From the NCBI GenBank assembly GCA_964448105.1, contig CAYUVK010000006.1:8443-72442 (forward strand): a stretch of DNA of 64,000 nt. Reading direction: 5' to 3'. Source of the stretch: an uncultured Ignavibacteriaceae bacterium (GTDB taxonomy: Bacteria; Bacteroidota; Ignavibacteria; Ignavibacteriales; Ignavibacteriaceae). Below are positions 7,475-36,876 of this stretch, one piece after another; within the stretch, counting starts at the first letter, position 1; each line of letters starts with the position of its first letter. Both the position numbers and the translations under genes were made by a program. The notes beneath the pieces were generated by a model. That model did no database searches and was not told the DNA's origin. It worked only from the letters and a program-made list of their open reading frames with translations.

Positions 7475-7484
7475 AAAATATTAA

Positions 7485-10995: not shown

Positions 10996-11048
10996 CTGTG
11001 CGCGGATTTTATTCAAATATGATGTTAAAATTTTGGGAGTAAATAAAA

Positions 11049-11531: not shown

Positions 11532-11553
11532 TTAAGCCCCATACCCGTTAAAC

Positions 11554-11582
11554 TTGCCTGCCGGAAGGCAGGCTTGTTTACT
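11554..11582 (+). terminator. Rho-independent terminator
   Basis: GCCTGCC-GGAA-GGCAGGC stem-loop followed by TTGTTT, located 25 bp after the stop of the cytochrome gene. Confidence 0.6.
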
Positions 11583-11715
11583 CGCTTCAGAGGCTTCCAA
11601 TAACTACATAAAAGTTTCACTGTAATAGTTTGAAAAAAAACATAGCAAGAAAAAGTTTAACTAACAGAAGAATTTTCGTTGTGATAATTGCAGAAATTAT
11701 TGAATTAAAATCATC

Positions 11716-12228
11716 ATGAGAAATAAAATATTCATTTTAGTTTTCTTCATATTAGGTTTTGTTATTAGTCTCTTACTAATAAATGATAATTCAAAGAATG
11801 CCACGGATATCGATCCTGTGTCTTTCAGCCACTATGTCCATACCAAAGAGCATAAGATAAAATGTGTAAATTGCCACAGGGGTGTTGAAACACAAGCGCG
11901 TGCAGAAATCCCTAATGTAAAAATTTGCAGTGTCTGTCATTCAAGGTTAATGAATCCTAAATCGGAAAAAGAAAAAAAGATTTATGAGTATGTGAAAGAA
12001 AACAAAACAATTCCCTGGAAAGTATTCTATTATGTTCCAGATTATGTTTACTTCTCTCACAGAAGACATGTTAAGCTTGGCAAATTGGATTGTACCGCTT
12101 GTCATGGTGATATGAGAGAGCAAACTTCACCTGAACTGAAAAATTTTAGCCCGGTAAAAATGCAATTTTGTTTTCAATGCCATGAAGATAAAAAAATAAC
12201 AACAGACTGCGGCAACTGCCATCATTGA
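11716..12228 (+). CDS. Membrane-anchored pentahaem cytochrome c (ActA/QrcA-like)
   Basis: N-terminal TM helix and five CxxCH motifs (CVNCH, CSVCH, CTACH, CFQCH, CGNCH). Confidence 0.85.
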   Translation: MRNKIFILVFFILGFVISLLLINDNSKNATDIDPVSFSHYVHTKEHKIKCVNCHRGVETQARAEIPNVKICSVCHSRLMNPKSEKEKKIYEYVKENKTIPWKVFYYVPDYVYFSHRRHVKLGKLDCTACHGDMREQTSPELKNFSPVKMQFCFQCHEDKKITTDCGNCHH

Positions 12229-12282
12229 TTTTCAAAATGCTAACGAAACTATTAAATAATGATTAACCGGAGAATAAACTGA

Positions 12283-19030: not shown

Positions 19031-21094
19031 TTAGATTTCTAACAATTTAGCATTTATTGCAACTATAACTGTACTTATCGACATTAAAACCGCACCAATA
19101 GCAGGACTTAAAATTATTCCGGCTGAAAACAAAACACCCGCAGCAAGCGGAATAGCAATAACATTATAACCGGTTGCCCAAATTAAATTTTGAATCATCT
19201 TTTTATATGTTGCCCGGGCAAATTTTATTAAAGTGACAACATCCTGGGGATTATTTTTTACCAGAATAATATCTGCAGTTTCAACAGCAACATCAGTTCC
19301 TGTACCTATGGCAATACCAACATCAGCTTGAGCCAAAGCAGGCGCATCGTTAACACCATCACCGGTCATAGCTACAATCATTCCACGATTCTGCACTTCT
19401 TTAATCTTCTCAGCTTTTTTGCCGGGTAGAACCTCAGCAAAATATTCATCAAGTTCGAGTTCATCAGCGACCCATTTTGCAACCTGTTTGTTATCCCCGG
19501 TAAGCATCATTGGTTTTATTCCCATTTCCTTAAGCTGCTTAATTGCTTCTTTAGATTCTTCTCTTATTATATCAGCTAATGTAATGACACCAATTAAATT
19601 ATTTTCAATTAAAAGATATACAACAGTTTTACCTAAGCCTGAAAGTTTGTCTATTTTATCTTTTCCTTTTACTTCAATTTTATTTTCTTCCAGGTATCCG
19701 GGACTTACAACTTTAACATTTCTCCCGTAGACTTTTCCTTCGGCACCTTTACCAGGAATCGAATTAAATTCTTTTACTTCAAATTTTTCTTTGTTTATTT
19801 CATTAAAAGAATTTACAATACCTTGAGCAATAGGATGTTCAGATTCTGATTCAACGGCAGAAGCATATTTTAAGATTTCTTTTTCATCATATTTATTATC
19901 AAAAGAAATTGTATCTGTTACTCCGAATTCTCCTTTTGTTAAAGTTCCTGTCTTATCAAAAATTACTGCTTGAATATTTCTTGCCTGTTCGAATGCATTT
20001 CTGTTTCTAATTAGCAAGCCGTTTTTTGCAGAAAGCGCAGTTGAGACCGCTACAACTAAAGGAATAGCTAAACCTAAAGCATGAGGGCATGTAATTACCA
20101 TTACTGTCACGGTCCTGGATAATGCGAAGTTGAAACTTTGTCCGGTAAAAACAAGCCATACAAACATTGTTAATGCACCGGAAGCAATTGCAACAATAGT
20201 TAACCAAAAAGCAGCTTTGTTAGCAAAGTTCTGAGTTTTGGATTTGCTCTCCTGTGCTTCCTTAACCATCTTTACTATCTGTGAAAGAAATGTTTCTTCA
20301 CCGATTTTCTCAACTTCAATTTTTATTGAACCCTCGCCATTTATGGATCCTCCGATTATATCATCACCTTCACCTTTTGAAACTGGTTTTGATTCACCTG
20401 TAATCATAGCTTCATTGATAGAACTTTTGCCTTCAAAGATTTTTCCGTCGGCAGGAATTTTTTCTCCAGGTTTTATTAATAATTTAGCTGCGTGCTTAAG
20501 TTCGGAAACCGGAACATCAGAAACATTTCCGTTTTCATCAATTTTATGAGCTTCATCCGGCATAAGTTTGGCAAGTTCTTCAAGAGCTTTTGAAGCGCCC
20601 ATCACTGATTTCATTTCTATCCAGTGCCCAAGCAGCATTATATCAATCAAAGTTGCAAGTTCCCAAAAAAAGACTTCCCCTTTAACTCCAAATACAACTG
20701 CGCTGCTGTAGAAATACGCGACTGAAATTGCAAGTGCGATTAAAGTCATCATTCCGGGTTGTTTCTTTTTTAATTCATCAAAAAGTCCTTTTAAGAAAGG
20801 CCAGCCCCCGTAAAAAAAGGTAAAAGATGAAAGCGCAAACAAAACATAGATATGGCCATTGAAGCGTAATGCTTCTTTAAGTCCGAGAAATTGCTGGACC
20901 AGAGGTGAGAGAAGAAGGATTGGAATTGTGATTATTAATGAAATCCAAAATCGCTTTTTGAAGTCTTCAATCATATGTGAATGATGATCATGATGAGAAT
21001 GTTCTTCATGTTCATGATTATCATTTTTAATATTGATGTTCTTATGATGATTATGATTCATATAATGGCCTTCATGCTCTTTCGTAGAGTTCAT
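19031..21094 (-). CDS. copB: P1B-type copper-transporting ATPase, CopB-like (His-rich N-terminus, CPH motif)
   Basis: His-rich leader (HNHHKN...HEHEEHSHHDHHSH), TGES, CPH in TM6 (ITCPHALGLAIP), DKTGTLT and GDGVNDAP. Confidence 0.92.
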   Translation of the reverse strand: MNSTKEHEGHYMNHNHHKNINIKNDNHEHEEHSHHDHHSHMIEDFKKRFWISLIITIPILLLSPLVQQFLGLKEALRFNGHIYVLFALSSFTFFYGGWPFLKGLFDELKKKQPGMMTLIALAISVAYFYSSAVVFGVKGEVFFWELATLIDIMLLGHWIEMKSVMGASKALEELAKLMPDEAHKIDENGNVSDVPVSELKHAAKLLIKPGEKIPADGKIFEGKSSINEAMITGESKPVSKGEGDDIIGGSINGEGSIKIEVEKIGEETFLSQIVKMVKEAQESKSKTQNFANKAAFWLTIVAIASGALTMFVWLVFTGQSFNFALSRTVTVMVITCPHALGLAIPLVVAVSTALSAKNGLLIRNRNAFEQARNIQAVIFDKTGTLTKGEFGVTDTISFDNKYDEKEILKYASAVESESEHPIAQGIVNSFNEINKEKFEVKEFNSIPGKGAEGKVYGRNVKVVSPGYLEENKIEVKGKDKIDKLSGLGKTVVYLLIENNLIGVITLADIIREESKEAIKQLKEMGIKPMMLTGDNKQVAKWVADELELDEYFAEVLPGKKAEKIKEVQNRGMIVAMTGDGVNDAPALAQADVGIAIGTGTDVAVETADIILVKNNPQDVVTLIKFARATYKKMIQNLIWATGYNVIAIPLAAGVLFSAGIILSPAIGAVLMSISTVIVAINAKLLEI

Positions 21095-21108: not shown

Positions 21109-21813
21109 ATTTTAATGATAACGAATCTTATTTTCATTAGAGTGTGATTGTTCTTCTTGTTTCATTATTTCTTTTTCGTCCATTTCTTTTGTATAAGAAT
21201 TATATTTCTCCGGTGAAGTATTATGAAGATGTTTTACTGCTGCTATAATTGCCCAAATTTTATCATCCGGATGGGTTCTCCCCCACGCCGGCATACCTGT
21301 CATTTTAATTCCGTTTTTTGTTACCCAGAACAATTCTTCTGCACTCATTTCTTGTCCGGATTCACTTAAATCGGGTGCAGGTGGATTTAATCCCTTCGCC
21401 AGTTCTGTTTCTTCTTTTCCCGGACCACCATGGCAGCTTTCACACATTTCCTTATAATGTGCAAAACCTTCTTTTATCATAGACGGATCATCTAGATCCG
21501 GAACTTTAATACCTTTGGAATGATGCTCAACTGAATTATCACTGGTAGTTTCTAAAACCCATTTGGAGATTCCTGTTTCAGGTTTTATTGCACTTACATT
21601 ATATAGGCCTGAATAAATAAAAATGATGCCTAATATGCCCAACCCAATAATTGTGAATAATATTGATAAAATGATTTTCATTATTCTTCTTAAAATATTT
21701 TATTAATTTTAGGAAAATAATTTAAGTGGTAAATGCCAATATTCAAACGTTATGGATCAAAGATAAGTTATACTGGGCAATTACTAATTCGAATTGAATT
21801 GTTTTGAAATTGA
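21109..21813. repeat. Direct repeat copy B (~0.7 kb; cytochrome c gene plus its upstream region)
   Basis: Hand alignment with 3922-4628, in the same orientation. Confidence 0.8.
21112..21681 (-). CDS. Membrane-anchored monohaem c-type cytochrome (paralogue B), first gene of an operon with copB
   Basis: CESCH motif and the same 189-aa length as the copy at 3925-4494. Its stop lies 17 bp upstream of the copB start. Confidence 0.85.
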   Translation of the reverse strand: MKIILSILFTIIGLGILGIIFIYSGLYNVSAIKPETGISKWVLETTSDNSVEHHSKGIKVPDLDDPSMIKEGFAHYKEMCESCHGGPGKEETELAKGLNPPAPDLSESGQEMSAEELFWVTKNGIKMTGMPAWGRTHPDDKIWAIIAAVKHLHNTSPEKYNSYTKEMDEKEIMKQEEQSHSNENKIRYH

Positions 21814-23507: not shown

Positions 23508-23648
23508 TTAAGTTTCCCCTTCCACAATTTTTATTTCTTCTTCGGTTAGGCCGTAAAGCTGATAAACTAATTGGTCGATTTGTTTATCTGTAGCATCTAT
23601 TTGCCTTTGGAGTACAGTTTTTTCTTGGGGGTTTATTAAAGATGACAT
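23508..23648 (-). pseudogene. 3'-terminal remnant of a DNA methyltransferase / type IIG-type I R-M gene
   Basis: Hand translation gives ...QEKTVLQRQIDATDKQIDQLVYQLYGLTEEEIKIVEGET*. This is the characteristic C-terminal tail of N6-adenine R-M methylases. Its only start codon lies inside the REP-like hairpin. Confidence 0.45.
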
Positions 23649-24364
23649 TTTTCAAGTTGCTATCCAGATATACGAAAAGATGTCTATCTTTTCCTTTCCC
23701 CAACTTCATCTTCAATTAAATAATTATCACTAAAATAATCCCTTTTCATATCAGAATGAAAGCAGATGAAATTACTTTTCCCACCAAACCATTCAATTAC
23801 TATATCTCTGCTCAATCTTGTTTCATTATTTCCAGCTAATATTTTATATGAACTGAACTTATAATTTCTTAGGTCTCCTACAATATTATGGTGAACAGGA
23901 TTGGCATGTATATAATATACAGCTGAATAAAAATAATTTTCATTATCTATAATCTTCCTCTTAAAGCCCCTTTGGAAAAGATTCCCCCTTCTTTTTTCTT
24001 GTATGTTAATTGACATCGAATACGAAATAAAGAACTTTCTGAATCTTTCACTCACAATCGCAGGTTGATTGTTTTTTACTCTTACAAGTAGGTGAAAGTG
24101 ATTAGGAAGTAAGCAGTAAGCAAATGTCTCTAAAGAATCCGAAAGATATTTATAATACTGTCGAAGAAAATAGTAATAATTATCTTCATTAAAGAAAATC
24201 TTTTCATTACCGTTACCACGGTTATATATATGGTATACTTTATCTTTGTACAAAGGTATGTAATAATTTATTTTTTTCATTATTAATCTGCCAAAAGATG
24301 ACATCTTTCAAGTTGTTACCAAGGTATTCGAAAAGATGTCATCTTTTCTTTTCCCCAACTCTTC
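23638..24364 (-). mobile_element. RAYT (IS200/IS605-like Y1 transposase) unit flanked by two ~70-bp REP-like hairpin repeats
   Basis: Repeats at 23638-23706 and 24293-24364 share AAAGATGACATyTTTCAAGTTG...CGAAAAGATGTC.ATCTTTTC.TTTCCCCAACT. Copy 2 folds into a ~17-bp stem (AAAAGATGACATCTTTC / GAAAAGATGTCATCTTTT). Copy 1 is more degenerate. Confidence 0.65.
23684..24280 (-). CDS. REP-associated tyrosine transposase (RAYT, transposase IS200-like family)
   Basis: HUH motif LPNHFHLLVR and catalytic Tyr region YYIHANPVHH. N-terminus YHIYNRGNGNEKIF. I prefer the ATG at 24280 (MKKINYY) over the track start inside the hairpin. Confidence 0.85.
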   Translation of the reverse strand: MKKINYYIPLYKDKVYHIYNRGNGNEKIFFNEDNYYYFLRQYYKYLSDSLETFAYCLLPNHFHLLVRVKNNQPAIVSERFRKFFISYSMSINIQEKRRGNLFQRGFKRKIIDNENYFYSAVYYIHANPVHHNIVGDLRNYKFSSYKILAGNNETRLSRDIVIEWFGGKSNFICFHSDMKRDYFSDNYLIEDEVGERKR

Positions 24365-24847: not shown

Positions 24848-25063
24848 ATGATTATGAATTTAAAAGATTTTGAAAAACAAATCCCTTCTGAAATTCTTAA
24901 AAGAGGTTACAGCTATTTTAACAATAAGCATATTATTTCTTTAGAGGAGGAGGAGTCGGGCATCTGGTTTGCTCAAGTTGAAGGAAATGAAAATTATAAT
25001 GTAACCGAAAAAAGAAAAAGTCAAGCAAGCAGGTATTCAAGTCATATGAACAAAACCAAATGA
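24848..25063 (+). pseudogene. Truncated N-terminal fragment of a SWIM-zinc-finger (SNF2-associated) protein
   Basis: IPSEILKRGYSYFNNKHIISLEEEESGIWFAQVEGNENYNV matches the usual N-terminus of SWIM-domain proteins. It then diverges and stops after 71 aa. Confidence 0.5.
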
Positions 25064-25158: not shown

Positions 25159-28143
25159 TCATAGAGAATTAAGATTTAAACTTTTTATCAGTTCATTTGC
25201 AACATTCGAACTTTCAAGCCTCATTATACTTTCTTCAGAATTCCCAAAACTCAGAAGATTTATGCTTCCATACCAGGCAATCCGTCGATCAATTATTGCA
25301 AATTTCTGATGTATGTTTGATTTCAATAATAAATTGATACCCTCATTTTTCAAACCATCCAAAGTATGGTACACAATTAATCTATTCCCTTCCCTATAAT
25401 CTTCATAAGGCTTTGTCATAATATTTATTTTAACATTTTTGATTATGGCTTTATTAAAATATTGATACATTTGTTCAACACGTCTTCTTGTAATAAACGG
25501 ACTAATTATAAAGATTTCCCTTTGAGCATTTATTAAATCGTTGTTATAAACCGGTAAAAAGCTATTTTTATCAAAAATAAAATTAGCAGTTTCAACTGTC
25601 CCGTCTGGCAGGACTTCACCTTTTATTTTATATCCAAGCGAAGCGTAACCATTAAGCCTCTTGTTGTACATTTTCTCAAGCATCCTTATATGAATATCTA
25701 TGTAATCATAAACTTGAACTTCTTTTTTATTTTCATGCAGCCTGTGAAGCCTTCCAATATATTGCTGTAAAGTACCTTTCCATGATATTGGTAATGTCAG
25801 AAACAGAGTATCAAGCCTTGGTTCGTCAAATCCTTCTCCGATATATTTGCCGGTTGCAACCAAAGTTAATTGCTTATTCAAAGAAACATCGGATATTCTT
25901 TTTAGAGTTTCTTTGGTTTTCTTTGCTCCGATTTTACCAGTTAAGGTTATTACATCCGGAATTTTTTCGTTTAACTTTTTCACAAGCATTTCCACATGGT
26001 CGGTTCTTTCAGTTAATACCAGAGAATTTCTACCGCTTTCGTAATTTTTAATAATATCACTAACTATAAGTTGATTTCTCATTTCATCAACTGTTAATTC
26101 TGAATAAATTTCTTGAATTGTAAATTGTTTTGCTCCTGATTGGACTTCTTTATCAATTGGAATATTAAAACCTGTAAATTTTGGGATAACATAATGTTCA
26201 AATGGTCTTTTTTCTGCTTGTATCTTTGCGTCGACTTTGAATCTTACCTGTCCGCAATGCATAAAAATAATTGGATGATGTCCATCTGATCTTGTAGGTG
26301 TTGCTGTTAATCCGTAAACATATTTTGCATCAGCATTTTTAAGGACTTGTTCAAAACTGAAGGCAGGAATATGATGACATTCATCTACAATTATCATCCC
26401 ATAATTATTGATGCCATCTAAAATACTTTTTCCTTTGTTTAAAGATTGCATGATTGCAACATCAATGATACCAGTTAAATTCTCTTTGCCTCCTCCAATT
26501 TGTCCTATTAGCGATTGTCGATTTTGTCTATTTCGTTTTTTCTTAATTTCAGGTAATTCTTCTTCTATATTTAAAAACTCAGATAATCTTGATATCCATT
26601 GTGAAAGTAATTGTTTTCTATGAACTATTACAAGTGTATTTATTTTTCTTTCAGAAATTAATTTAGCTGCAATTACAGTTTTACCAAATGCTGTGGCAGC
26701 GGCTAATACGCCATTTTCATATTTTAATAATTTATTTACTGCAGATAACTGTTCATCTCTTAATACTCCTTTAAACACAACATTTATATTTCTACCATGA
26801 TTGGTTTTATCAACTTCTTTAATCTCAATATTAAATTTATCTAATATAATGTAAATATCTTCTTCACACCCTCTCGGCAAACAAAGAAATTCTTCCGTTT
26901 CATCAGAACATGATATAATTCTTGGCTTATTATATGTTGGCATTCGCATTGCCTGGGCTTTATAAAATTCAGGATTCTTAAATGCAGCTAACCGTTTTAA
27001 AACATTCAATGCCTTTTGAGAAATACCTTCTTTGAAAATATATATCATATTTGCTTTTATAAGCTCTATATTTTGGGGAAAGTCATCCCTAGTTAGCTGT
27101 GGCGTTTTGATTCTCTCCCATGGTTTTTGATTTTCTTCGGTATCTTTTCTTAATACTCCTAATTCATTCCCGTTTGCTGCAGAAAGTCTTACAATGATAG
27201 ATTCAACTTTGTCTTCTGACAACTTCTTTATGTAACTCAAAAATTCCCATTGATCAGTATAAGGTTCATATTGTTCATTAATAAAAACACTATTGTCTTT
27301 CTTTCTTGATTCTTTCTGCAAAGGAAGTGCAATCAAATTCCCGAAACCTCCTTTTGGCATTAAATCTTGATTGGGAAAAAATCTATCATAAGATTTGAAT
27401 TTGATTTCGTGCCTTCTATTCATTGAATAGGTTAATAAAGATGTTCCGAATTTCCTTGCTAATGAAGCAGGTATACTCTTCTCAAAGAAGAACCAAACGT
27501 GAGCACCATTTCCCGAACGGGAACGTTCTACTGCAAAAGGGAGATCAAAATCTATACATATATTTCTTAATACAAAAATATCTTTTTTCCATTCTTCATT
27601 ATCAAAATCGATTGCTAAAAAGTAGCAAGTTTCATCAATACACATAGGGTATATTCCTGCAACAACATTTCCTTTAAGATGCTCTTCAATTACTTTTTCA
27701 GTTAAAGGTTCAAAAGCTTTATTATTGCACTCGAAGCATTTTATTTTCGGCTTGTTGCATATTCCTGGCTTCCACTCGTTAAAACAAACAGGTGAATAAC
27801 CTGACTTACCATTTTTATTCTGCCATCTTTTAGTAAACACATCATCTCGTCCTTTAAAGAGAGACATAAAAAGTTTTATCTTTTCCCCGGGTTTACTGTA
27901 TCGATTTATTGATTTTCTAGAAAGTTCATGGGTTGGTTGAGCTGAAATATCTGGACAAATTTCTTCCTTATCATTAACAGAAATATCCGGTAATTCTAAT
28001 TCATTTAAAGTTTCCTTTGAATAATTGAGAATGTCAAGCTTTTCTTTTAGTATTTTATTTTCAGCTTTTAATTTATCATTCTCAATAAGTAGTGCCTGGT
28101 ATTTATTTAAGAGGGATAAATTTTTTACCTGATCATCAGTCAT
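25159..28143 (-). CDS. Single-polypeptide conflict-system protein: coiled coil + Zn-ribbon + archaeo-eukaryotic primase (AEP) domain + SF2 DExH helicase + PLD(HKD) nuclease
   Basis: Cys cluster CFNEWKPGICNKPKIKCFEC. AEP motifs LAIDFDNE (DxD) and SRSGNGAHVWFFF. Helicase motif I AATAFGKTV and motif II VDECHH. C-terminal HKD motif HQKFAIIDRRIAWYGSINL. Confidence 0.85.
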   Translation of the reverse strand: MTDDQVKNLSLLNKYQALLIENDKLKAENKILKEKLDILNYSKETLNELELPDISVNDKEEICPDISAQPTHELSRKSINRYSKPGEKIKLFMSLFKGRDDVFTKRWQNKNGKSGYSPVCFNEWKPGICNKPKIKCFECNNKAFEPLTEKVIEEHLKGNVVAGIYPMCIDETCYFLAIDFDNEEWKKDIFVLRNICIDFDLPFAVERSRSGNGAHVWFFFEKSIPASLARKFGTSLLTYSMNRRHEIKFKSYDRFFPNQDLMPKGGFGNLIALPLQKESRKKDNSVFINEQYEPYTDQWEFLSYIKKLSEDKVESIIVRLSAANGNELGVLRKDTEENQKPWERIKTPQLTRDDFPQNIELIKANMIYIFKEGISQKALNVLKRLAAFKNPEFYKAQAMRMPTYNKPRIISCSDETEEFLCLPRGCEEDIYIILDKFNIEIKEVDKTNHGRNINVVFKGVLRDEQLSAVNKLLKYENGVLAAATAFGKTVIAAKLISERKINTLVIVHRKQLLSQWISRLSEFLNIEEELPEIKKKRNRQNRQSLIGQIGGGKENLTGIIDVAIMQSLNKGKSILDGINNYGMIIVDECHHIPAFSFEQVLKNADAKYVYGLTATPTRSDGHHPIIFMHCGQVRFKVDAKIQAEKRPFEHYVIPKFTGFNIPIDKEVQSGAKQFTIQEIYSELTVDEMRNQLIVSDIIKNYESGRNSLVLTERTDHVEMLVKKLNEKIPDVITLTGKIGAKKTKETLKRISDVSLNKQLTLVATGKYIGEGFDEPRLDTLFLTLPISWKGTLQQYIGRLHRLHENKKEVQVYDYIDIHIRMLEKMYNKRLNGYASLGYKIKGEVLPDGTVETANFIFDKNSFLPVYNNDLINAQREIFIISPFITRRRVEQMYQYFNKAIIKNVKINIMTKPYEDYREGNRLIVYHTLDGLKNEGINLLLKSNIHQKFAIIDRRIAWYGSINLLSFGNSEESIMRLESSNVANELIKSLNLNSL

Positions 28144-28222: not shown

Positions 28223-28585
28223 CTATTCATTAGAAGTTGAACTAGTATAAATGGATTTGATATTTTTTAATTGATCAATCAGTTTGTCTAAATCATCTTC
28301 AATTATAGCCCAGACTATTTTATAATCAATACCAAAATAATCATGAATAATGCGATTTCTAAATCCCCTAATTCTTTCCCATTCAACATTAGGATTATTT
28401 TGCCTGAATTTAGGATCAATTCTATTAGCGGCTTCTCCTATTATTTCAAAATTTCTTACAACTGCATCCATTGTTTTTTCATCTTTTTGAAACGAATCAA
28501 AATTTAATTCGCTTGTATAGCTTTTGATTTTCATAGCTGATTCAATCATATCTTCAAGCAATAAAAGTATATCTCGCTTAGACAT
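28223..28585 (-). CDS. hepT: HepT-like (DUF86) RNase toxin
   Basis: Rx4HxY motif as RNRIIHDY, 120 aa, and an 8-nt overlap with the upstream MNT gene. Confidence 0.9.
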   Translation of the reverse strand: MSKRDILLLLEDMIESAMKIKSYTSELNFDSFQKDEKTMDAVVRNFEIIGEAANRIDPKFRQNNPNVEWERIRGFRNRIIHDYFGIDYKIVWAIIEDDLDKLIDQLKNIKSIYTSSTSNE

Positions 28586-28868
28586 AAATTAGATCCGATT
28601 TAATTACTTTATAATACCTTTCCTTTATTCCATTTCTTGAAACTAAATCAACTTTAAATCCTATAAGATTTTCAATTTCTTCTGCAAGATCAATAAATTG
28701 GATTCCAATTTTGTCTTTGAACTCAACCATTATATCCAAATCGCTTCCATCCTCTTGTTCATTTCTTGCATAAGAACCAAAGATAGCGATTGATTTAATA
28801 GGATATTTAGAAAATAATTGTTTCTTATGAGTATTCAATATAAACTCTATTTCTTTAAGAGTTTTCAT
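28578..28868 (-). CDS. mntA: MntA-type nucleotidyltransferase antitoxin
   Basis: GSYARNEQEDGSDLDI (GSxxR...DxD of minimal nucleotidyltransferases), 96 aa. Confidence 0.9.
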   Translation of the reverse strand: MKTLKEIEFILNTHKKQLFSKYPIKSIAIFGSYARNEQEDGSDLDIMVEFKDKIGIQFIDLAEEIENLIGFKVDLVSRNGIKERYYKVIKSDLIYV

Positions 28869-29858: not shown

Positions 29859-30260
29859 TTACTTTAAACCTTTTACTTTGAAGCCGCTTTTCAAAAGTAT
29901 TTCTTTTGCTCTTTTAAGTGATACTTCTTTCAAAGTCATTCCGCAAAGCGGGCACTTACCCGGTTTATCTGAAATTACATTATAATCCATTACATCCTGG
30001 TATACTTTCCCGTCTTTATTTTCATCAATTGCTTTTAAATCAATTACACCCTCTCTAACGATAGAGTCTTTAACATTTTTTGTTGTATCTATATTCATAA
30101 CTTTGTTAGAATCACTTTCCATATTCATTTTATGTTCCATCATTTTCATAGTTTTATGATTCATTGAGCTATCCATTTTTTCTTGTGCTAATGAAAGAAC
30201 TGCAAAGCTGAATGTAAACACAAAAACTAAAAGAAAAGTTTTGCTTATATTATTGAACAT
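29859..30260 (-). CDS. Exported Met/His-rich protein with a C-terminal heavy-metal-binding (CxxC, HMBD/YHS-like) module
   Basis: Signal peptide, then MDSSMNHKTMKMMEHKMNMESD, then IDENKDGKVYQDVMDYNVISDKPGKCPLCGMTLKEV. Confidence 0.7.
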   Translation of the reverse strand: MFNNISKTFLLVFVFTFSFAVLSLAQEKMDSSMNHKTMKMMEHKMNMESDSNKVMNIDTTKNVKDSIVREGVIDLKAIDENKDGKVYQDVMDYNVISDKPGKCPLCGMTLKEVSLKRAKEILLKSGFKVKGLK

Positions 30261-30283
30261 TTTATACCTCCTTGTATTAATTT

Positions 30284-30625
30284 TTATAAATTCTGAAAAT
30301 CATTTGTTTCTCCAGTTTTAATACGCACAGCTTTTTCAACAGGAGAAATAAAAATCCACCCATCGCCGCTTTTACCTGTATGTGCATATTTCGAAATAAC
30401 ATCAACTAATTTGTCACTTTCTTCGTTATTGCAAACCAATTCTATCTTAACCACTTTGGTATATTTTTGAACATACTCAATAGAAAAGCTAAAAGCTTCA
30501 GGATCCGCCCACTCAGCAAGTGCGTTAGCATCAAGTAGAGTCATTCCCTTTACACCTGCTTCTTCTAATTTTTCAATTACGATATCGGCTTTTTCATGCC
30601 GAATGTAAGCAATTATTTTTTTCAT
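30284..30625 (-). CDS. P-II (GlnB)-like small signalling-fold protein encoded inside the efflux operon
   Basis: MKKIIAYIRHEKADIVIEKLEEAGVKGMTLLD...TGKSGDGWIFISPVEKAVRIKTGE follows the P-II fold signature. I prefer the ATG at 30625, immediately after the cusA stop. Confidence 0.8.
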   Translation of the reverse strand: MKKIIAYIRHEKADIVIEKLEEAGVKGMTLLDANALAEWADPEAFSFSIEYVQKYTKVVKIELVCNNEESDKLVDVISKYAHTGKSGDGWIFISPVEKAVRIKTGETNDFQNL

Positions 30626-30626
30626 A

Positions 30627-33600
30627 TTAATTTCCTTCACTTTTAGCTTGATTAGCAATTTTTAATACCTGTCTTTTCTTTATTACATAAAAGATAGCCG
30701 GATAGAATGCGAGCTGAATTATCATGGCTGTGATTATACCGCCGAACATCGGGGCGGCAATTCTTTTCATTACATCGGAGCCCGATCCGTGTCCGATAAG
30801 GATTGGTAACAAACCAAGCAGCAGCACGGTTACCGTCATTATAACAGGACGTATTCTTCTGACTGCTCCCTGGAAGATTGCCTCTTTAAGTTTTTCAAGT
30901 GATGTTAACAATCCCTGCTTCCTCATATTTTCATAAGAGATTTCCAGGTAGAGCAGCATAACAACTCCCATTTCAGCACTTACACCCAGTAATGCTATTA
31001 TACCAACCCAGACAGCAACGCTAAGATGGTAGCCTGCCAGGAATAAATACCATGTTGCTCCCACCATTGAAAACGGAAGGGCAAGTATAATTATTCCTGT
31101 ATTGATGAATGATTTCGTATTAAAGTAAAGGAGCAGTAATACTATCAATAAAGTCAGCGGGAGAACTGTGGCAAGCTTTTTAGCAGCTCTTTCCATGTAT
31201 TCATACTGTCCGCTCCAAATTAATGAATAGCCATGAGGAAGCTTTACTTTCTGTGCTATTATTTTCTGTGCATTTTGAACATAAGTTCCTACATCGATAT
31301 TTTCTATATCAATGTAAACCCAGGAATTAGGCCGCGCATCTTCCGATTTAATCATCGGCGGGCCCTTCTTGACTACAATATTGCCAAGTTCTTCTAGGGG
31401 AATATTTCCGCCGCCTGATAATGGAACAAGCACACGTTTTAAAGCATCAATATTATCACGATAATCTCTTTGATAACGAAGATTTACGGGATAACGCTCC
31501 AATCCTTCGACTGTCTGTGTAATGTTCATTCCGCCTACAGCCGACATAAATACATTTTGAACATCAGCTACTGTAAGACCATATCTTGCAATAGCATTTC
31601 TATCAATATCGAAATCAACATAATTTCCGCCGGCAGATCTTTCAGCATAAACGGAACGTGTACCCGGTATTGTTCGTGTCACTTCTTCAATTTTTTTACC
31701 GATATCCTGCAATACCTTCAAATCCGGTCCGGCAATCTTAATTCCTACCGGAGTTTTAATACCGGTTGAAAGCATATCGATTCTTGTTTTGATTGGCATT
31801 GTCCATGCGTTTGTAAGTCCAGGTATTTTTACAGCTTGATCTAAATCTTCAACAAGCTTTTCCCTTGTCATTCCCTCCGGCCATTCATCTTCAGGTTTTA
31901 ATTGTATTGTTGTTTCAATCATTGATAATGGTGCAGGATCTGTAGCAGTTTCAGCGCGTCCTATTTTTCCAAATACTGATTTAACTTCCGGAAATGTTTT
32001 AATGATTTTATCAGTCTGCTGCAACAATTCTTTCGCTTTTGTAATTGAAATTCCCGGCAATGTAGTCGGCATATACAGTAAATCACCTTCGTACAACGGC
32101 GGCATAAATTCCGAACCGAGCTTCGAAAAAGGGATGTAAGAAACAATTACTATTAATATAGAAAGAATAATTACCCACCATCTTTTTTTCAAAACAAAAT
32201 CTACAATAGGATGATAGACATTCATTAAAAACCTTGTTACAGGATTGTCCTCTTCCTTTTTCATTTTACCACGTATGAAGTACCCCATTAAGACAGGAAC
32301 TATTGTAATTGCGAGTATTGCACCTGCCGCCATCGAATATGTTTTTGTAAATGCCAAAGGTTTGAACAATCTTCCTTCCTGTGCCTCGAGTGTAAATACA
32401 GGAATGAAGGAGACTGTGATTACTAAAAGTGAATAAAATATTGAAGGACCAACTTCTTTTGAAGATTCAAGAATCACAGCCCAGTGCGGTCTTCTTTTCC
32501 CTTCCGGCAAAAGCTGGTTATGCAAAATGTGCGAGTGGGAGTTTTCCACCATTATTATTGCAGCGTCAACCATTGCACCAATTGCTATTGCGATACCGCC
32601 GAGCGACATAATGTTTGCATTCAAACCCTGTAATTTCATAACAAGCAAAGCTGCCAGTACAGCAGTTGGCAAAGTAAAAATTGCAACGAGAGAGCTTCGG
32701 AAGTGAAGAAGGAAAATAATAATTATTAAAGCCACAATTAAACCTTCTTCCATTAATTTATCACCTAGATTATCAACCGCTTTATGTATCAGTTGACTTC
32801 TGTCATACACAGGAACAATCTGAACATCAGATGGAAGTGAAGACTTCAATTCCTGCAATCGTTTTTTAACTTTGTTGATAACCGCAAGCCCGTTTTCTCC
32901 ATACCTTTGAATTACAATTCCGCCTACTACTTCACCTTCACCATTAAGATCTGCAATTCCTCTTCGTAATTCGGGTCCTATATCAATATTTGCAACATCT
33001 TTTAAATAAATTGGTGTGCCAGTGCTTGGGTCTTTTCCAATAGCAATATTTTTCAAATCATCAACACTTTTTATATATCCCAAACCTCTTACCATAAACT
33101 CGGTTTCACCCATTTCCATTAACCTGCCGCCGACATCATTGTTGCTTTGTTTTATTGCCATTTTAACTTTACCGAGCGGAATATTGTAAGAAGCTAATTT
33201 TGTAGGATCAACATTCACCTGGTATTGTTTTACAAATCCACCGACACTTGCAACTTCAGATACACCCGGAATAGCTGATAGTTCATATTTTAAGAACCAA
33301 TCTTGTATTGAGCGTAATTCCTGCAAACTCCGTTTGTTAGATTTAAGTGCATATTCATAAACCCATCCTAAGCCTGTAGCATCCGGACCTAACTCAGGCG
33401 ATACTCCTTCAGGGAGTGAACTTCGCATTGAACTTAAATATTCAAGCACCCTGCTTCTTGCCCAGTACAAATCAGTTCCATCTTCAAATATTATATAAAC
33501 CATTGAAAAGCCGAAGAATGAGTATCCCCGAACGTCTTTTGCGTAAGGAACAGAAAGCATTTTAGATGTAAGCGGGTAGGTTACCTGGTCTTCAACTATT

Positions 33601-33806
33601 TGCGGGCCTTGCCCGGGATATTTTGTAAATATGATTACCTGCACATCACTTAAATCAGGTATAGCATCTACAGCAGTATTTTCAATCGCCCATATGCCTC
33701 CGAATATCAGTGCAGCAGTTAATATTATTACCAGTATTTTATTATTAATTGACCATTCAATTATTTTGGCAATTATTCCGTCTTTAGCTGGATTACCTGT
33801 TGTCAT
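30627..33806 (-). CDS. cusA: Heavy-metal efflux RND pump, CusA/CzcA family
   Basis: 1059 aa with 12-TM RND topology and two large periplasmic loops. It sits in an operon with the adaptor (MFP) and outer-membrane factor (OMF) genes. Confidence 0.93.
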   Translation of the reverse strand: MTTGNPAKDGIIAKIIEWSINNKILVIILTAALIFGGIWAIENTAVDAIPDLSDVQVIIFTKYPGQGPQIVEDQVTYPLTSKMLSVPYAKDVRGYSFFGFSMVYIIFEDGTDLYWARSRVLEYLSSMRSSLPEGVSPELGPDATGLGWVYEYALKSNKRSLQELRSIQDWFLKYELSAIPGVSEVASVGGFVKQYQVNVDPTKLASYNIPLGKVKMAIKQSNNDVGGRLMEMGETEFMVRGLGYIKSVDDLKNIAIGKDPSTGTPIYLKDVANIDIGPELRRGIADLNGEGEVVGGIVIQRYGENGLAVINKVKKRLQELKSSLPSDVQIVPVYDRSQLIHKAVDNLGDKLMEEGLIVALIIIIFLLHFRSSLVAIFTLPTAVLAALLVMKLQGLNANIMSLGGIAIAIGAMVDAAIIMVENSHSHILHNQLLPEGKRRPHWAVILESSKEVGPSIFYSLLVITVSFIPVFTLEAQEGRLFKPLAFTKTYSMAAGAILAITIVPVLMGYFIRGKMKKEEDNPVTRFLMNVYHPIVDFVLKKRWWVIILSILIVIVSYIPFSKLGSEFMPPLYEGDLLYMPTTLPGISITKAKELLQQTDKIIKTFPEVKSVFGKIGRAETATDPAPLSMIETTIQLKPEDEWPEGMTREKLVEDLDQAVKIPGLTNAWTMPIKTRIDMLSTGIKTPVGIKIAGPDLKVLQDIGKKIEEVTRTIPGTRSVYAERSAGGNYVDFDIDRNAIARYGLTVADVQNVFMSAVGGMNITQTVEGLERYPVNLRYQRDYRDNIDALKRVLVPLSGGGNIPLEELGNIVVKKGPPMIKSEDARPNSWVYIDIENIDVGTYVQNAQKIIAQKVKLPHGYSLIWSGQYEYMERAAKKLATVLPLTLLIVLLLLYFNTKSFINTGIIILALPFSMVGATWYLFLAGYHLSVAVWVGIIALLGVSAEMGVVMLLYLEISYENMRKQGLLTSLEKLKEAIFQGAVRRIRPVIMTVTVLLLGLLPILIGHGSGSDVMKRIAAPMFGGIITAMIIQLAFYPAIFYVIKKRQVLKIANQAKSEGN

Positions 33807-33867
33807 TTAATTTCTCCAAAATTTTTTTTGAGCTTGACCACTATAAGAAACTGTTAAATAAATTTCT

Positions 33868-33945
33868 GTTGTCATTTCGAGGGAGTCCTCGACTGAGAAA
33901 TCTTTTGCTTTTATTGAGATTTCTCCCCTCGGTCGAAATGACAAC
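33868..33945. repeat. 78-bp nested palindromic (REP/MITE-like) element in the cusB-cusA spacer
   Basis: Outer arms GTTGTCATTTCGA (33868-33880) / TCGAAATGACAAC (33933-33945) are perfect over 13 bp. Inner arms are GAGAAATC / GATTTCTC. Confidence 0.7.
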
Positions 33946-34023
33946 TCGCAGTATATTCCTAAACAATTACTTAAGTTATTTTTTATTTTACTCATCATAT
34001 TTAACCTTCAGATAAATCTTGTA

Positions 34024-35586
34024 TTAGTCTTTATACTCAAATCCATTCTTTTTTAAATTCTCTTTTACTTCTTTAATAGTGAATTCCTTTAGTGTCATTC
34101 CACACAAAGGACATGTTCCCGGTTCATCGGAAATAACATTCCAGTCCATTATATCTTCGTAAAGCTTTCCATCTTTATTTTTATCAATTGCAGAAAGATC
34201 GATTGTGCCTTTTCTTATCCGCGGATCAGTCATTTCAGTGTTATCTTTTTTGTCCATATCTTTCATCGAATTCACATTATCATTTTTCATTTTCGTCGTA
34301 TCTTTTTTAGCGGCGCTACTAAATTGTGACAAAGCAGCTCTCAGATTACTTTCCGAATCGATTAGGAATTGTGCGGATGTTACAATTGTTTCCCCTGCAG
34401 ATATTCCCTTTAGAACCTGGTAATAACCATTGGAATAATCACCAAGAGTTATTTCCATAGGTTTGAATTTACCATTACCCAGATCGAGTATTACAATATT
34501 TTTTTGACCGTTTCTCAGCACAGCCTGTTCGGGAACAGCAGGATAATTTCCAAGACTTTTTCCTTTTATAACTATGTTAGCAAACATCGAAGGCTTCAAT
34601 TCATTATTATAATTAGGAATATCAAACCTGACTTTTACTGTTCTTGTTTTGTTATCAAGAGTCGGATAGATAAAAGAAATTTTACTCTTAAAAGTTTTCC
34701 CCGGTAAAAAATTAAAAGTAATATCAGCACGTGAACCCAATTTTACTTTAGGCAATTCATATTCATAAATATCTGCTGTTAACCATAAATTCGAAAGGTC
34801 TGCAATATGCAGCAAAGAAGCACCAGCCATAACTTTCTGACCCTCTACAACATTCTTCATTATAACTGTTCCACCCTGCTGGGCATAAAGAGTCATATAG
34901 GTTTTTACAACTTTTGTCTCTTTTATCCTTTCAATTTCACTTTCAGGGATTTCAAGTAATTCCAATTTTCTAACAGCGTTCTTTAATAATTCATCCCCGC
35001 TTGCTGCAGCTTCACTAATGGTAGAATTTTTTACAGTAGATTGATAAGAAAGTGCTGTCAATAGTTCTTGTTCTGCGGCTACAAGTTCAGGAGAATAAAT
35101 ATCCATCAATTTTTCACCTTTATTTACTACTTGCCCGGTATAATTAACATAAAGCTTCTGCACCCAGCCGCTTACTCTTGTAGTTACCATATATTCATTC
35201 TGCTCATTAACAGTGAGTATACCATTTGTAACTACCTGGGAACTTAAATCTTTATTTTCAACTACAGCAGTTTTTACATTCATATTTTGCTGAACTGCAC
35301 CGCTGATAGTTACTATACCATTTCCTGAAGCTTCATCTTCATAAACCGGTACCAAATCCATTCCCATTTTTGATTTCCCCGGGTGATCATAAACCTCGCT
35401 TGGATTCATGGGAGCACGCCAGTAGAGAACTTTTCTCTCTTTTTGTGCCGTTTGTGTGGAACTGTTATTCATAGCAGAAGAACTATTATTACCTGAACTT
35501 CTAAGCCATAGATATGAAATCACCGCTATTATTATTACTAGTATTCCGATAATTATGTTTTGTATTTTCACTTTATTATTCTCCAA
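34024..35586 (-). CDS. cusB: RND periplasmic adaptor (CusB-like MFP) with an extra C-terminal CxxC metal-binding module
   Basis: N-terminal TM helix and an HlyD-type core (VSGWVQKLYVNYTGQVVNKGEKLMDIYSPEL). The C-terminal module is IDKNKDGKLYEDIMDWNVISDEPGTCPLCGMTLKEF. Confidence 0.88.
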   Translation of the reverse strand: MENNKVKIQNIIIGILVIIIAVISYLWLRSSGNNSSSAMNNSSTQTAQKERKVLYWRAPMNPSEVYDHPGKSKMGMDLVPVYEDEASGNGIVTISGAVQQNMNVKTAVVENKDLSSQVVTNGILTVNEQNEYMVTTRVSGWVQKLYVNYTGQVVNKGEKLMDIYSPELVAAEQELLTALSYQSTVKNSTISEAAASGDELLKNAVRKLELLEIPESEIERIKETKVVKTYMTLYAQQGGTVIMKNVVEGQKVMAGASLLHIADLSNLWLTADIYEYELPKVKLGSRADITFNFLPGKTFKSKISFIYPTLDNKTRTVKVRFDIPNYNNELKPSMFANIVIKGKSLGNYPAVPEQAVLRNGQKNIVILDLGNGKFKPMEITLGDYSNGYYQVLKGISAGETIVTSAQFLIDSESNLRAALSQFSSAAKKDTTKMKNDNVNSMKDMDKKDNTEMTDPRIRKGTIDLSAIDKNKDGKLYEDIMDWNVISDEPGTCPLCGMTLKEFTIKEVKENLKKNGFEYKD

Positions 35587-35607
35587 TTTAATAGGCTTTA
35601 GACTATA

Positions 35608-36876
35608 TTATTTACTTAAACTTGTTCCTGTTAAGAATTTTAATTCTTCAATCTCTTTTAGATAATCTGTTTTTAACCTGTATAAACTTGTTTCCACCTG
35701 ATACAATTTATTTTGTGCATCAATCACATTTATAAAATCAATTTGACCTACCTGGTAGCTGGATAGAGCCGCTGAATATGTTTGTTGTGCCTGAAGCAGT
35801 TGAGCTTCTTCAACTAATCTAATTCTTTCCTTCAGAGAGTTTAACTTTGAAACCGCTGTCCCAAAATTGCCGTTAAGCATTTGCAAGGAGAGATTATATT
35901 GTTCACGATACATATCCTGCATTGCTTCCGTCTCTTCAACTTTTGAGGAAACTTTTCCGCCGTAATTAAGAGGAAGAGATATACCTACCATAAATGAAGT
36001 AAAATCTGCAAGAGGTGTATTTGTTTTTGCTATTCTATCTCTTTGGGAATATTGAACTAAAACGTTAAAATTCGGAAGGAAATCATACTTTGCCAGCTTT
36101 TCCTGCAGTTCGGCTTTTTCCCTTGCTAATTCAATCCCGGTAAGAAATGGTCTATTTTGCACAGCTAATGAATCAAGCTGTTTCTGAGAAAATTTATAAT
36201 ATTGGATTGCAGGAAGATTGCCTGTAATAATAGGAACATCTTGAGATCTCAACAACTGGGCATTTATCACAGCGGTAACTGAGTTCTCTTTATTTATTAA
36301 TTCTTCTATTTTATCGTTCAAATTGGTTATTTCTAATTCAACTTTGAACAAATTCTGCTGGCTTGCTTTTGCAACCGAATAATTTATCCTGACAACTTTA
36401 GCTATCTCATTGAGCAATTTTAAGTTTTCATTTGCAACGGCAATTGCTTTCCGAACATAAATCAATTCGTAATAATTTTGAGAGACATTTTTTATTATTT
36501 CATTTTTAGCATCATCTACTTCCTGCTTTACAATTTCAGCACCTTTTTCAGTTACATCAGCCATAGAACCCAATTTCCCCGGAAAAGGAATTGCCTGGCT
36601 TAATCCAATAATTTTACCTGTCATCGGTTCTTGAGTAAAAGAAAATGAGTTGGTTGGTAAATTTGCTAAACCTAGAGTAAGCATTGGATCCGGCAGGTTT
36701 GAATTGATATTTATATAGCTTTCTGCGGCCGAATATTTTGATTGCAGCATTTTAAGCTTTGGGCTAACATTTAATGCCTGGCTTATCAAAGAATCAAGAG
36801 TATTTTGCTGAGCAAAAATGGTTAATGGAATAATACTCAATAAAATGAATAGACATATATTTTTTATATTAATCAT
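35608..36876 (-). CDS. cusC: TolC-family outer-membrane efflux protein (CusC-like)
   Basis: Signal peptide, 422 aa, two-repeat coiled-coil-rich OEP architecture, and position upstream of cusB. Confidence 0.85.
   Translation of the reverse strand: MINIKNICLFILLSIIPLTIFAQQNTLDSLISQALNVSPKLKMLQSKYSAAESYININSNLPDPMLTLGLANLPTNSFSFTQEPMTGKIIGLSQAIPFPGKLGSMADVTEKGAEIVKQEVDDAKNEIIKNVSQNYYELIYVRKAIAVANENLKLLNEIAKVVRINYSVAKASQQNLFKVELEITNLNDKIEELINKENSVTAVINAQLLRSQDVPIITGNLPAIQYYKFSQKQLDSLAVQNRPFLTGIELAREKAELQEKLAKYDFLPNFNVLVQYSQRDRIAKTNTPLADFTSFMVGISLPLNYGGKVSSKVEETEAMQDMYREQYNLSLQMLNGNFGTAVSKLNSLKERIRLVEEAQLLQAQQTYSAALSSYQVGQIDFINVIDAQNKLYQVETSLYRLKTDYLKEIEELKFLTGTSLSK

Follow-up and report, generated by a model that had tools for sequence, protein, structure and literature searches.

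What does a single gene that joins a primase, a helicase-like motor, and a nuclease in one polypeptide do for the bacterium that carries it? The question is posed by a complete gene at positions 25159..28143, on the minus strand, of a 64,000-nucleotide stretch of contig CAYUVK010000006.1 from an uncultured Ignavibacteriaceae bacterium; this whole stretch is referred to as the window. The open reading frame (ORF) runs from ATG through the stop codon without interruption over 994 codons, in a region of ∼30% G+C where chance long ORFs are not expected. The initial annotation of this gene had listed an archaeo-eukaryotic primase (AEP) domain, a superfamily 2 (SF2) DExH helicase, and a phospholipase D (PLD) nuclease, and had held that no member of such a family has a demonstrated mechanism. 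All of the motifs that it quoted are present in the given order, as seen by translation, Pfam, and structural models, and the domain order AEP, SF2, PLD was recovered by Pfam and Foldseek. The statement about mechanism is refuted by IEE of Escherichia coli, a homolog with an AEP-TOTE domain whose activities have been described (PMC9943667; bioRxiv 10.1101/2023.06.07.543989). Judged by all of its sequence-defined features (ORF list, translation, Pfam, and BLASTP), the 994-aa protein is a member of the IEE / Z1568-like / AEP-TOTE family, in a long form that bears a PLD domain. Our preferred reading, with a probability of about 0.55, is that it works on mobile-DNA intermediates as a self-contained "cut/resect, anneal, fill-in" enzyme and is carried as a single-gene conflict module.

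The iee gene (ECs_1305 / Z1568; NP_309332.1) lies within the element SpLE1 of E. coli O157:H7 Sakai, and to our knowledge its product is so far the sole bacterial protein shown to drive insertion sequences (ISs) from a genome. In Pfam searches IEE matched AEP-TOTE (E = 1.7e-98, 329 bits) together with ResIII and Helicase_C, with no PLD domain. BLASTP aligned residues 87 to 840 of the window protein with residues 49 to 777 of IEE at 43% identity over 758 aa (654 bits). The two proteins have in common the AEP-TOTE domain, a Cys4 cluster, the DxD/H/D motifs, a steric-gate Tyr, the middle region, and the SF2 ATPase motifs; D179, D181, H215, D253, and Y165 of the window protein align with D142, D144, H178, D216, and Y128 of IEE, K488 is the counterpart of the Walker A residue K451, and DECH (587–590) and R798/R801 are collinear. 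The window protein departs from the IEE-type architecture, a chain that ends after the ATPase at ∼780 to 830 aa, by continuing into a 140-aa PLD domain with an intact HKD motif, whereas IEE (786 aa) stops right after the ATPase. It also carries ∼38 extra residues ahead of the AEP domain (which starts at residue 87 versus 49), modeled as a long helix, and IEE falls into a sister short-form clade in a rough neighbor-joining (NJ) tree. With its place in the sister long-form clade and its extra nuclease, the 994-aa protein is, by these comparisons, not an IEE ortholog in the strict sense.

When IEE itself was the query, a homolog search brought back nothing but near-identical E. coli proteins; these were uninformative on architecture but revealed that the E. 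coli IEE clusters in NCBI/UniRef carry the shared name [quoted passage not shown]. The "TOTE conflict system" name given in the initial annotation is thus in use for homologs of the gene, and the AEP domain carries it in Pfam as well. Its attribution of the underlying prediction to the Aravind group could not be verified: the main text of the eLife 2020 article on NTP-dependent conflict systems is without the words "TOTE", "AEP", or "primase", and we did not find the origin or definition of the name "TOTE" in the searchable literature, including two Aravind-group papers.

Published work on IEE provides the functional frame. In cells, the protein raises the transposase-dependent excision of IS3, IS1, and IS30-family elements, along with adjacent deletions (PMC9943667; bioRxiv 10.1101/2023.06.07.543989). 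Its AEP domain is a Mn2+-dependent, error-prone DNA polymerase that is abolished by mutation of D142/D144, and the Tyr at the sugar-selectivity position (Y128) goes with the use of deoxynucleoside triphosphates (dNTPs). The AEP and ATPase portions together synapse two 3′ overhangs via at least 4 bp of microhomology and then extend them, amounting to microhomology-mediated end joining (MMEJ) in vitro; the ATPase is DNA-dependent (K451), and unwinding was not detected (PMC9943667). The AEP domain of IEE is the type of the "Z1568-like family" (PMC9943667), placed in the Prim-Pol clade according to a 2005 classification as cited in PMC5862659. Two models compete for the events in vivo, one invoking end joining after transposase cuts with resection by unidentified host nucleases (PMC9943667) and the other strand switching during copy-out (bioRxiv 10.1101/2023.06.07.543989).

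We located the conserved motifs along the 994-aa protein as follows: CFNEWKPGICNKPKIKCFEC at residues 120 to 139, IDFDNE at 178, GAHVW at 213, AFGKTV at 485, DECHH at 587, TATP at 613, YIGRLHR at 795, and HQKFAIIDRRIAWYGSINL at 945 to 963. No catalytic residue has been lost. The primase-polymerase (AEP) domain, which is of the Z1568-like / AEP-TOTE type, spans aa 87 to 315 (27199..27885; like all features of this gene, on the minus strand) and contains D179 and D181 (motif A), H215 (motif B), D253 (motif C), and the steric-gate residue Y165. It matched Pfam AEP-TOTE PF22548 with E = 5.7e-105 and 350.4 bits, compared to a cutoff of 27, over profile positions 1 to 229 of 230, and matched the PADLOC "PrimPol" profile PDLC01465 with E = 1.6e-93. 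In Foldseek comparisons, the AlphaFold2 model of the domain superposed on the Prim-Pol domain of CRISPR-associated Prim-Pol (CAPP; 7nqf) with a template-modeling score (TMt) of 0.77 and a root-mean-square deviation of 3.6 Å. The AEP fold, on which the initial annotation had made its proposal depend, is therefore supported by both Pfam and structure. The Cys4 cluster (C120, C129, C136, and C139; 27727..27786) lies inside the AEP-TOTE domain as a presumed zinc site, so the Cys residues noted before are confirmed but a separate Zn-ribbon domain is not. These residues are kept in 69 to 70 of 72 diverse family representatives (∼97%), in short and long forms alike and in IEE as well. The fold of this region has low confidence in the AlphaFold2 model, with predicted local distance difference test (pLDDT) values of 52 to 59, and the putative zinc binding is suggested by the ∼97% conservation of the Cys residues only.

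The motor follows a middle region of aa 316 to 455 (26779..27198), comprising a disordered linker and a small α/β domain ahead of the ATPase core. Pairwise alignment indicated that this region is conserved with IEE, and its mean identity is 62% in the close clade; it may function in DNA binding. The SF2 ATPase ("helicase") core occupies aa 456 to 845 (25609..26778), as defined by Pfam, PDB sequence matches, and Foldseek, with Walker A residues G487-K488-T489, DECH at 587 to 590, TAT at 613 to 615, and motif VI residues Y795, G797-R798, and R801. Pfam ResIII (also DEAD) matched aa 460 to 618 (E = 1.8e-25) and Helicase_C matched aa 695 to 802 (E = 6.6e-6). The PDB sequence matches were XPBII and Rad25 at 1.9e-17, and the Foldseek neighbors included T4 UvsW, archaeal and eukaryotic XPB, RadD, and SauUSI. 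The alignments to UvsW and XPB cover 440 to 536 columns, exceeding the two RecA lobes alone, and from this length may extend into the middle region. The SF2 motifs named in the initial annotation are thus all in place, but by analogy to the studied homolog, a DNA-dependent ATPase without unwinding (PMC9943667), the label "helicase" is better read as SF2 ATPase.

The C-terminal PLD-family nuclease domain spans aa 854 to 990 (25174..25584) and was recognized by Pfam PLDc_2 (aa 870–988, E = 2.4e-11). The C-terminal 149 residues, modeled alone, reached a pLDDT of 90.8, and Foldseek matched this domain model to NucT (6ehi, 5.8e-9), Zucchini (4ggk), and Nuc (1byr, TM 0.73), with E values from 6e-9 to 2e-7; weak profile matches to NucT, Zucchini, and PLD3 were also obtained. 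The active-site motif (25255..25311) reads H945-x-K947-x4-D952-x6-G959-S960-x-N962, in agreement with the HxK(x)4D(x)6G(S/T)xN pattern of PLD nucleases, and the chain carries this one HKD motif only. At the other end of the protein, a long helix of aa 3 to 44 (28012..28137), a putative coiled coil or oligomerization element, is followed by a disordered linker (aa 45–84). The whole-protein AlphaFold2 model, built from a 49-sequence alignment, had a mean pLDDT of 75 and displayed this helix, the disordered linker, and the folded domains, with pLDDT below 50 for aa 40 to 76. Among close homologs, the helix has heptad-like conserved positions (L11, Y15, E21, N22, L25, E28, and L32), and a role in oligomerization is plausible.

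We examined the shape of the family by phmmer, using the AEP and middle regions to query 1.84 billion cluster representatives (50% identity clusters), and obtained 1346 representatives at E ≤ 1e-30. Among the best 150, 40 combined AEP, ATPase, and PLD-like regions (∼920–1100 aa) and ∼35 had the IEE-like combination of AEP and ATPase (745–835 aa); a PLD-like domain was present in roughly half of the full-length representatives. The approximate NJ tree, calculated from 724 shared columns, separated a short clade with IEE from a long clade with the window protein. More than 8000 homologs were found in all, and full-length matches of the same architecture extend at 59 to 76% identity across many phyla.

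Conservation of the active sites differs sharply between the two halves of the protein. The AEP DxD, H, and D residues, the Walker A Lys, DECH, and the motif VI Arg are kept in 97 to 100% of the 72 diverse representatives and in all 121 members of the close clade, and Y165 is invariant. Across 36 diverse long-form representatives, D952 is present in every protein, His in 10, and Lys in 16. His and/or Lys has been lost in about three-quarters of these sequences, with replacements that include S, Q, Y, F, C, E, T, P, and others, whereas D952 and the WYGS core are universal in long forms; lineages with an intact HxK are scattered through the NJ tree. The complete HKD motif is found in 119 to 120 of the 120 close homologs (59–76% identity) of the window gene, which makes an active PLD nuclease probable in the window protein. 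For the family as a whole, the absence of PLD from the IEE clade and the loss of His/Lys in most diverse long forms indicate that the nuclease is an accessory, repeatedly disabled or missing, rather than a universal effector. The pattern suggests repeated conversion of the nuclease into a non-catalytic, possibly DNA-binding or dimerizing module, and the approximate NJ tree suggests a single gain of PLD followed by many decays. Repeated decay of the nuclease site, set against invariant polymerase and ATPase sites, constrains any mechanism proposed for these proteins. Another arrangement occurs on the JGI metagenome contig Ga0209347_1000009, which has two family copies within ∼8 kb (locus L003, 2324–5286 and 10001–12955): one is full length, and the other is divided between two genes with a 4-nt overlap, one for AEP-TOTE (368 aa) and one for ATPase-PLD (619 aa). 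The split copy hints that the polymerase may also work as a subunit apart from the motor-nuclease.

In our preferred reading, three activities reside in a single polypeptide: a primase-polymerase that uses dNTPs, a DNA-dependent SF2 ATPase of the XPB/UvsW-like type, and a PLD nuclease with one intact HKD motif. The polymerase, synapsis, and ATPase chemistry of the core would be held in common with IEE, because the AEP-ATPase span is 43% identical and all catalytic residues are conserved, Y165 included. In the single-HKD nucleases Nuc, NucT, and Zucchini, the active site is built from the HKD motifs of two protomers. By analogy, the PLD domain of the window protein would pair with a second copy to form its active site, a pairing that the N-terminal coiled coil plausibly promotes, and it would then supply the DNA cleavage or resection that the IEE model borrows from host nucleases. 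The targets would most probably be replication or transposition intermediates of transposable elements or other mobile DNA, with phage restriction possible. The initial annotation had instead proposed a phage or plasmid sensor in which primase-like synthesis or DNA-end recognition licenses helicase translocation and PLD cleavage. Licensing by primase synthesis fits the family poorly, given an IEE clade without PLD, a catalytic His/Lys that most long-form subfamilies have lost, and the lack of unwinding by IEE, and the steric gate at Y165 is a Tyr, as in dNTP-using IEE (Y128).

The distribution of the gene is patchy and crosses phyla. Homologs at 59 to 76% identity occur in Ignavibacteria, Bacteroidota, Kryptoniota, Bacillota, anammox Planctomycetota, Desulfobacterota, Nitrospirota, and others; such identity across distant phyla implies, from the sequences, that the family has been transferred horizontally. 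A scan of 185,579 species genomes gave at least 294 pattern-confirmed matches, a lower bound set by the peptide patterns. Short forms were identified on 122 PLSDB plasmids. Searches of 50,697 GenBank phage records returned helicase-level matches only, with no AEP-containing match, and full-length relatives were present on only about 22 of 2.9 million IMG/VR contigs, where their surroundings resemble those of cargo genes; on these counts we rejected a phage-encoded replication gene. Three of the IMG/VR contigs (L095, L097, and L099), of a Bacteroidales-like lineage, encode relatives of 42 to 44% identity. They have a conserved overlapping pair of helix-turn-helix (sigma70_r4-like) and DUF3307 genes upstream on the same strand (∼6600–7990) and two tandem tyrosine integrases with Arm-DNA-bind_5 downstream (∼11420–13890), suggesting that in this lineage the gene travels as integrative-element cargo, possibly with lineage-specific partners.

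In the window, the gene is adjacent to and co-directional with a MntA/HepT toxin-antitoxin pair (28223..28868, minus strand), as the initial annotation had recognized. HepT (28223–28585) has a HepT-like Pfam match at E = 2.6e-30 and is separated from the 994-aa gene by 79 bp; MntA (28578–28868) matches NTP_transf_2/Polbeta at ∼8e-13 as well as the PADLOC candidate PDC-S09. A MntA-like neighbor was present in 3 of 83 loci from other genomes only, so the pair is context and not a conserved partner. The "mobile-element debris" reported earlier does exist, but it amounts to two items. One is a 71-aa remnant of a SWIM-zinc-finger gene (24848..25063, plus strand), which clusters with the intact gene at 13357 to 14751 of contig L007 (CAVUCR010000023.1), from a syntenic Ignavibacteria metagenome-assembled genome of ∼80 to 90% nucleotide identity; by blastn, L007 14598–14767 and window 25007–24836 are 88% identical. 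The full-length counterpart in L007 encodes 464 aa with a SWIM domain and matches PDC-S62, and the remnant marks a deletion beside the 994-aa gene. The other is a 206-aa ORF (23684–24304, minus strand) with a weak Pfam Y1_Tnp (IS200-like) match (E = 0.0048), bracketed by direct repeats of ∼70 nt with 87 to 95% identity (23638–23705 and 24294–24360) that contain a small palindrome, GAAAAGAT..ATCTTTTC. The interval 23638 to 24360 looks like a REP/RAYT- or IS200-type element. The palindrome-repeat motif was also seen in L007 (15679–15732), beside a 195-aa Y1_Tnp-like ORF.

The same block of four genes (a 135-aa ORF, MntA, HepT, and the 994-aa gene) occupies the same place in L007 and the window. 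Beside it, L007 has the full-length SWIM gene (PDC-S62), a Y1-transposase-like ORF, and a gene for a 1055-aa type IIG restriction-modification enzyme (PADLOC 1.2e-258); the window is without the type IIG gene and the intact SWIM gene and has instead the 71-aa remnant and a different 206-aa Y1-like ORF. Comparison of the two contigs thus reveals gain and loss of genes directly beside the conserved block, and the site is a small variable hotspot that collects defense-type genes. The L007 copy of our gene (10001–12986) is its closest genomic homolog, at 77% identity, and is split into 109-aa and 828-aa ORFs, which indicates a frameshift, a pseudogene, or an assembly error.

The wider surroundings in the window consist of genes for heavy-metal efflux, P-II and heavy-metal-binding proteins, a P-type ATPase (19031–21094), and cytochromes. 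A complete CusCBA-like heavy-metal RND efflux operon lies within 29859 to 36876 on the minus strand, with an outer-membrane factor (35608–36876), an HlyD-type adaptor with HMBD repeats (34024–35586), and an AcrB-family pump (30627–33806), all on that strand; genes for a P-II-like protein and a small HMBD protein come after it. The 994-aa gene is thus embedded in a metal-resistance region, with no large defense island in the window. We detected no tRNA, CRISPR, tandem repeats, or repeated IS within the 64 kb. A 300-nt direct repeat of 87% identity (3922–4221 and 21109–21408, 17 kb apart) was noted, the second copy of which overlaps a cbb3-type cytochrome c gene (21112–21681), and the two copies may belong to paralogous genes instead of a mobile element. 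A scan for sigma-70 promoters and terminators was uninformative, with counts no higher than expected from shuffled sequence (20 promoter-like sites versus 30.8; 2 terminator-like sites versus 2.1).

Among the 83 loci in other genomes, there was no conserved neighbor: the commonest cluster, an AAA_14/DUF4143 ATPase (PADLOC PDC-S01), was present in 10 (12% at most), as expected for the single-gene module envisaged in the initial annotation, and a multi-gene "TOTE system" with obligatory partners was rejected. A census of 150 flanking ORFs from 71 loci, uncontrolled by matched genes, revealed AAA_14/DUF4143, Schlafen/AlbA_2, methyltransferases, type IIG enzymes, and pAgo-related matches, toxin-antitoxin parts (HEPN/MNT, ParE, PIN, and HicB), and DDE transposases in 2 of 150 only. 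At individual loci we also saw an ImmA/IrrE-HTH pair, integrase fragments, HicAB, McrBC, RhuM, and tandem tyrosine integrases, and mad2 is likewise among the neighbors. These surroundings look like defense islands or integrative elements. The earlier suggestion of a defense island thus fits other genomes better than the window, where the site is only a small variable hotspot amid metal-efflux and cytochrome genes.

How well does an enzyme for mobile-DNA intermediates account for these observations, compared with its rivals? A horizontally moving, single-gene anti-mobile-DNA module is the most likely description, and several points weigh against it. The functional data are all for a short-form protein, 43% identical and from a sister clade, whose mechanism is itself disputed in vivo between end joining (PMC9943667) and strand switching in copy-out (bioRxiv 10.1101/2023.06.07.543989). 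A physical link to ISs is lacking: the window has no repeated IS, tblastn with nine queries, among them IS3, IS30, IS66, IS4, IS630, and IS605 transposases and two tyrosine integrase types, found no match within its 64 kb, and DDE transposases make up only 2 of the 150 neighbors elsewhere, leading us to reject a physical association with IS elements. In addition, dimerization, zinc binding, and nuclease activity are only inferred, and an anti-phage role fits the defense-type neighborhoods equally well. The corresponding rival is a classical single-gene anti-phage or anti-plasmid restriction system in which AEP/Cys4 senses foreign ends or replication intermediates, SF2 translocates, and PLD destroys the invader, analogous to helicase-PLD restriction enzymes such as SauUSI or Mokosh MkoC-type proteins. 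Strict conservation of HKD in the clade of the window gene agrees with it, as do the Foldseek match to SauUSI (7clg), the partial PADLOC matches to a type IV methyl-directed restriction enzyme (8.9e-14), PbeA, and the MkoC PLD domain (2.2e-13), neighbors rich in defense or candidate genes (PDC-S01, mad2, pAgo-related, restriction-modification, McrBC, and toxin-antitoxin), the rarity of the family in phage genomes, and a Pfam name that denotes a conflict system. However, the supposed effector is dispensable, being absent from the IEE clade and stripped of His and/or Lys in about three-quarters of the diverse long forms, and the studied homolog acts on IS elements rather than phages and does not unwind DNA. 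PADLOC, a check proposed in the initial annotation, gave domain-level defense-gene matches but no full-length match to a named system; its version 2 has no full-length model for AEP-ATPase-PLD, and only the AEP domain matched strongly. We also found no report of phage defense by the AEP-helicase-PLD architecture in the searchable literature. Anti-phage defense by the 994-aa protein is possible; as an account of the gene, we consider the restriction scheme doubtful. A bolder version of the mobile-DNA idea, which we judge unlikely, casts the long forms as an innate immune system that is complete in itself and devoted to countering transposable elements and further mobile DNA of the rolling, circle-forming, or copy-out kind. 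Here the ATPase and AEP would recognize and capture 3′ ends or strand-switch intermediates of copy-out-paste-in transposition (or those arising when a plasmid or phage replicates). Cleavage of the intermediate would fall to the PLD dimer, and the polymerase would use microhomology to close the donor again. Were this true, ISs would be actively removed from the genome, beyond mere damage repair, and the lineages in which the HKD dyad was repeatedly lost would be those that returned to working as IEE does, without the nuclease.

Two further explanations were weighed. The protein could serve host double-strand break repair or damage tolerance, as a LigD-independent microhomology end-joining enzyme with built-in end processing. 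MMEJ by IEE in vitro is in line with such a role, the ATPase resembles the repair helicases XPB, RadD, and UvsW, XPB works with a partner nuclease, Bax1 (6p4o), and two related Ignavibacteria genomes have the gene in the same place. A conserved core gene of fixed synteny, the outcome that the initial annotation would have counted against itself, is nevertheless not what we observed: synteny is variable, the distribution is patchy (at least 294 confirmed matches in the genome scan), identities of at least 60% across distant phyla reflect horizontal transfer, the family resides on plasmids and integrative elements, the sister copy in L007 is split, and no ligase partner is conserved nearby. Host repair is quite improbable on this evidence. 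Still further down the scale, and barely credible to us, is a replication initiator (primase-helicase) of an integrated plasmid or mobile element, comparable to the archaeal and bacterial plasmid PrimPol-helicase replicases. AEP-helicase fusions are typical of mobile-element replicases (PMC5862659), and family members do occur on plasmids and near integrases. Yet the motor is an SF2 protein of the XPB/UvsW/RadD type, rather than the hexameric SF3/D5 or MCM motor of a replicative primase-helicase, IEE does not unwind DNA, and a C-terminal nuclease would be unexpected in such an enzyme. Moreover, no mobile-element backbone is conserved around the gene, and GenBank phages gave no AEP-containing match. 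In the window the gene is flanked by metal-efflux and cytochrome genes, and neither a tRNA nor flanking repeats nor an integrase of either queried type was found there.

A cut/resect, anneal, and fill-in enzyme of mobile-DNA intermediates stays our preferred reading. The domain combination is annotated in databases, and the gene is one of thousands of already-named homologs; we found no paper that describes the AEP-ATPase-PLD architecture in the searchable literature. Both IEE papers treat IEE as a two-domain E. coli protein (PMC9943667; bioRxiv 10.1101/2023.06.07.543989), with zero occurrences of "PLD" or "phospholipase" in PMC9943667 and the 2023 Chandler preprint and likewise none of "nuclease" in the preprint. 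Our comparison shows that IEE belongs to a large, phylum-spanning family, the PLD-bearing members of which sit in defense-type hotspots. It links two bodies of work, the "TOTE conflict system" annotation and the biology of IS excision, and the link makes the question of anti-transposon versus anti-phage versus repair function directly testable.

Four groups of known proteins place the window protein among characterized systems. The closest solved structure for its AEP domain is CAPP of Marinitoga sp. 1137 (7nqd, 7nqe, 7nqf, and 7p9j), with a sequence match of E ∼3e-8 and both domains in the Prim-Pol clade. The 994-aa protein scores 105 bits against the 200-bit cutoff of the NCBIfam equivalog NF040561 (PrimPol_Msp), and its C-terminal architecture is not the same. 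No cas genes were seen among the flanking genes in the window or in the top neighbor families of the 71 loci, and no CRISPR array was found in the 64-kb window; with a score below the NCBIfam cutoff and no CRISPR context, we rejected an identity as CAPP or a CRISPR accessory protein. The PADLOC profile PDLC01465 is labeled "Cas-associated" PrimPol yet matches IEE end to end (E = 2.5e-147, profile positions 1 to 276 of 276), and automated calls of "CRISPR-associated PrimPol" may often be IEE-family proteins without a CRISPR link.

For the motor and nuclease, the likenesses are at the level of domains. PADLOC-DB v2.0 returned domain-level matches only: PrimPol on the AEP domain, PbeA, mREase_IV, and HamB on the ATPase, and MkoC, MkoB, and DrmC on PLD. 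SauUSI (a type IV restriction endonuclease, 7clg), XPB-Bax1 (6p4o), and Mokosh MkoC resemble the window protein in coupling an XPB/ResIII-type SF2 motor to a nuclease; they differ in domain order, and the window protein is without a modification-reading domain and has an added polymerase. Its PLD domain shares the fold (TM 0.63–0.73) and the complete HKD motif with Nuc of Salmonella Typhimurium (1byr), NucT of Helicobacter pylori (6ehi), and Zucchini/MitoPLD (4ggk), but these are stand-alone homodimeric nucleases, whereas the PLD of the window protein is a C-terminal appendage of a polymerase-ATPase. The degenerate dyad in most related subfamilies is reminiscent of TrmBL2 and FAM83, whose PLD-like folds are inactive and were matched by Foldseek as well. 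IEE, finally, is alike not only in its polymerase and ATPase but also in its genetic setting, as a single gene on horizontally acquired DNA (SpLE1).

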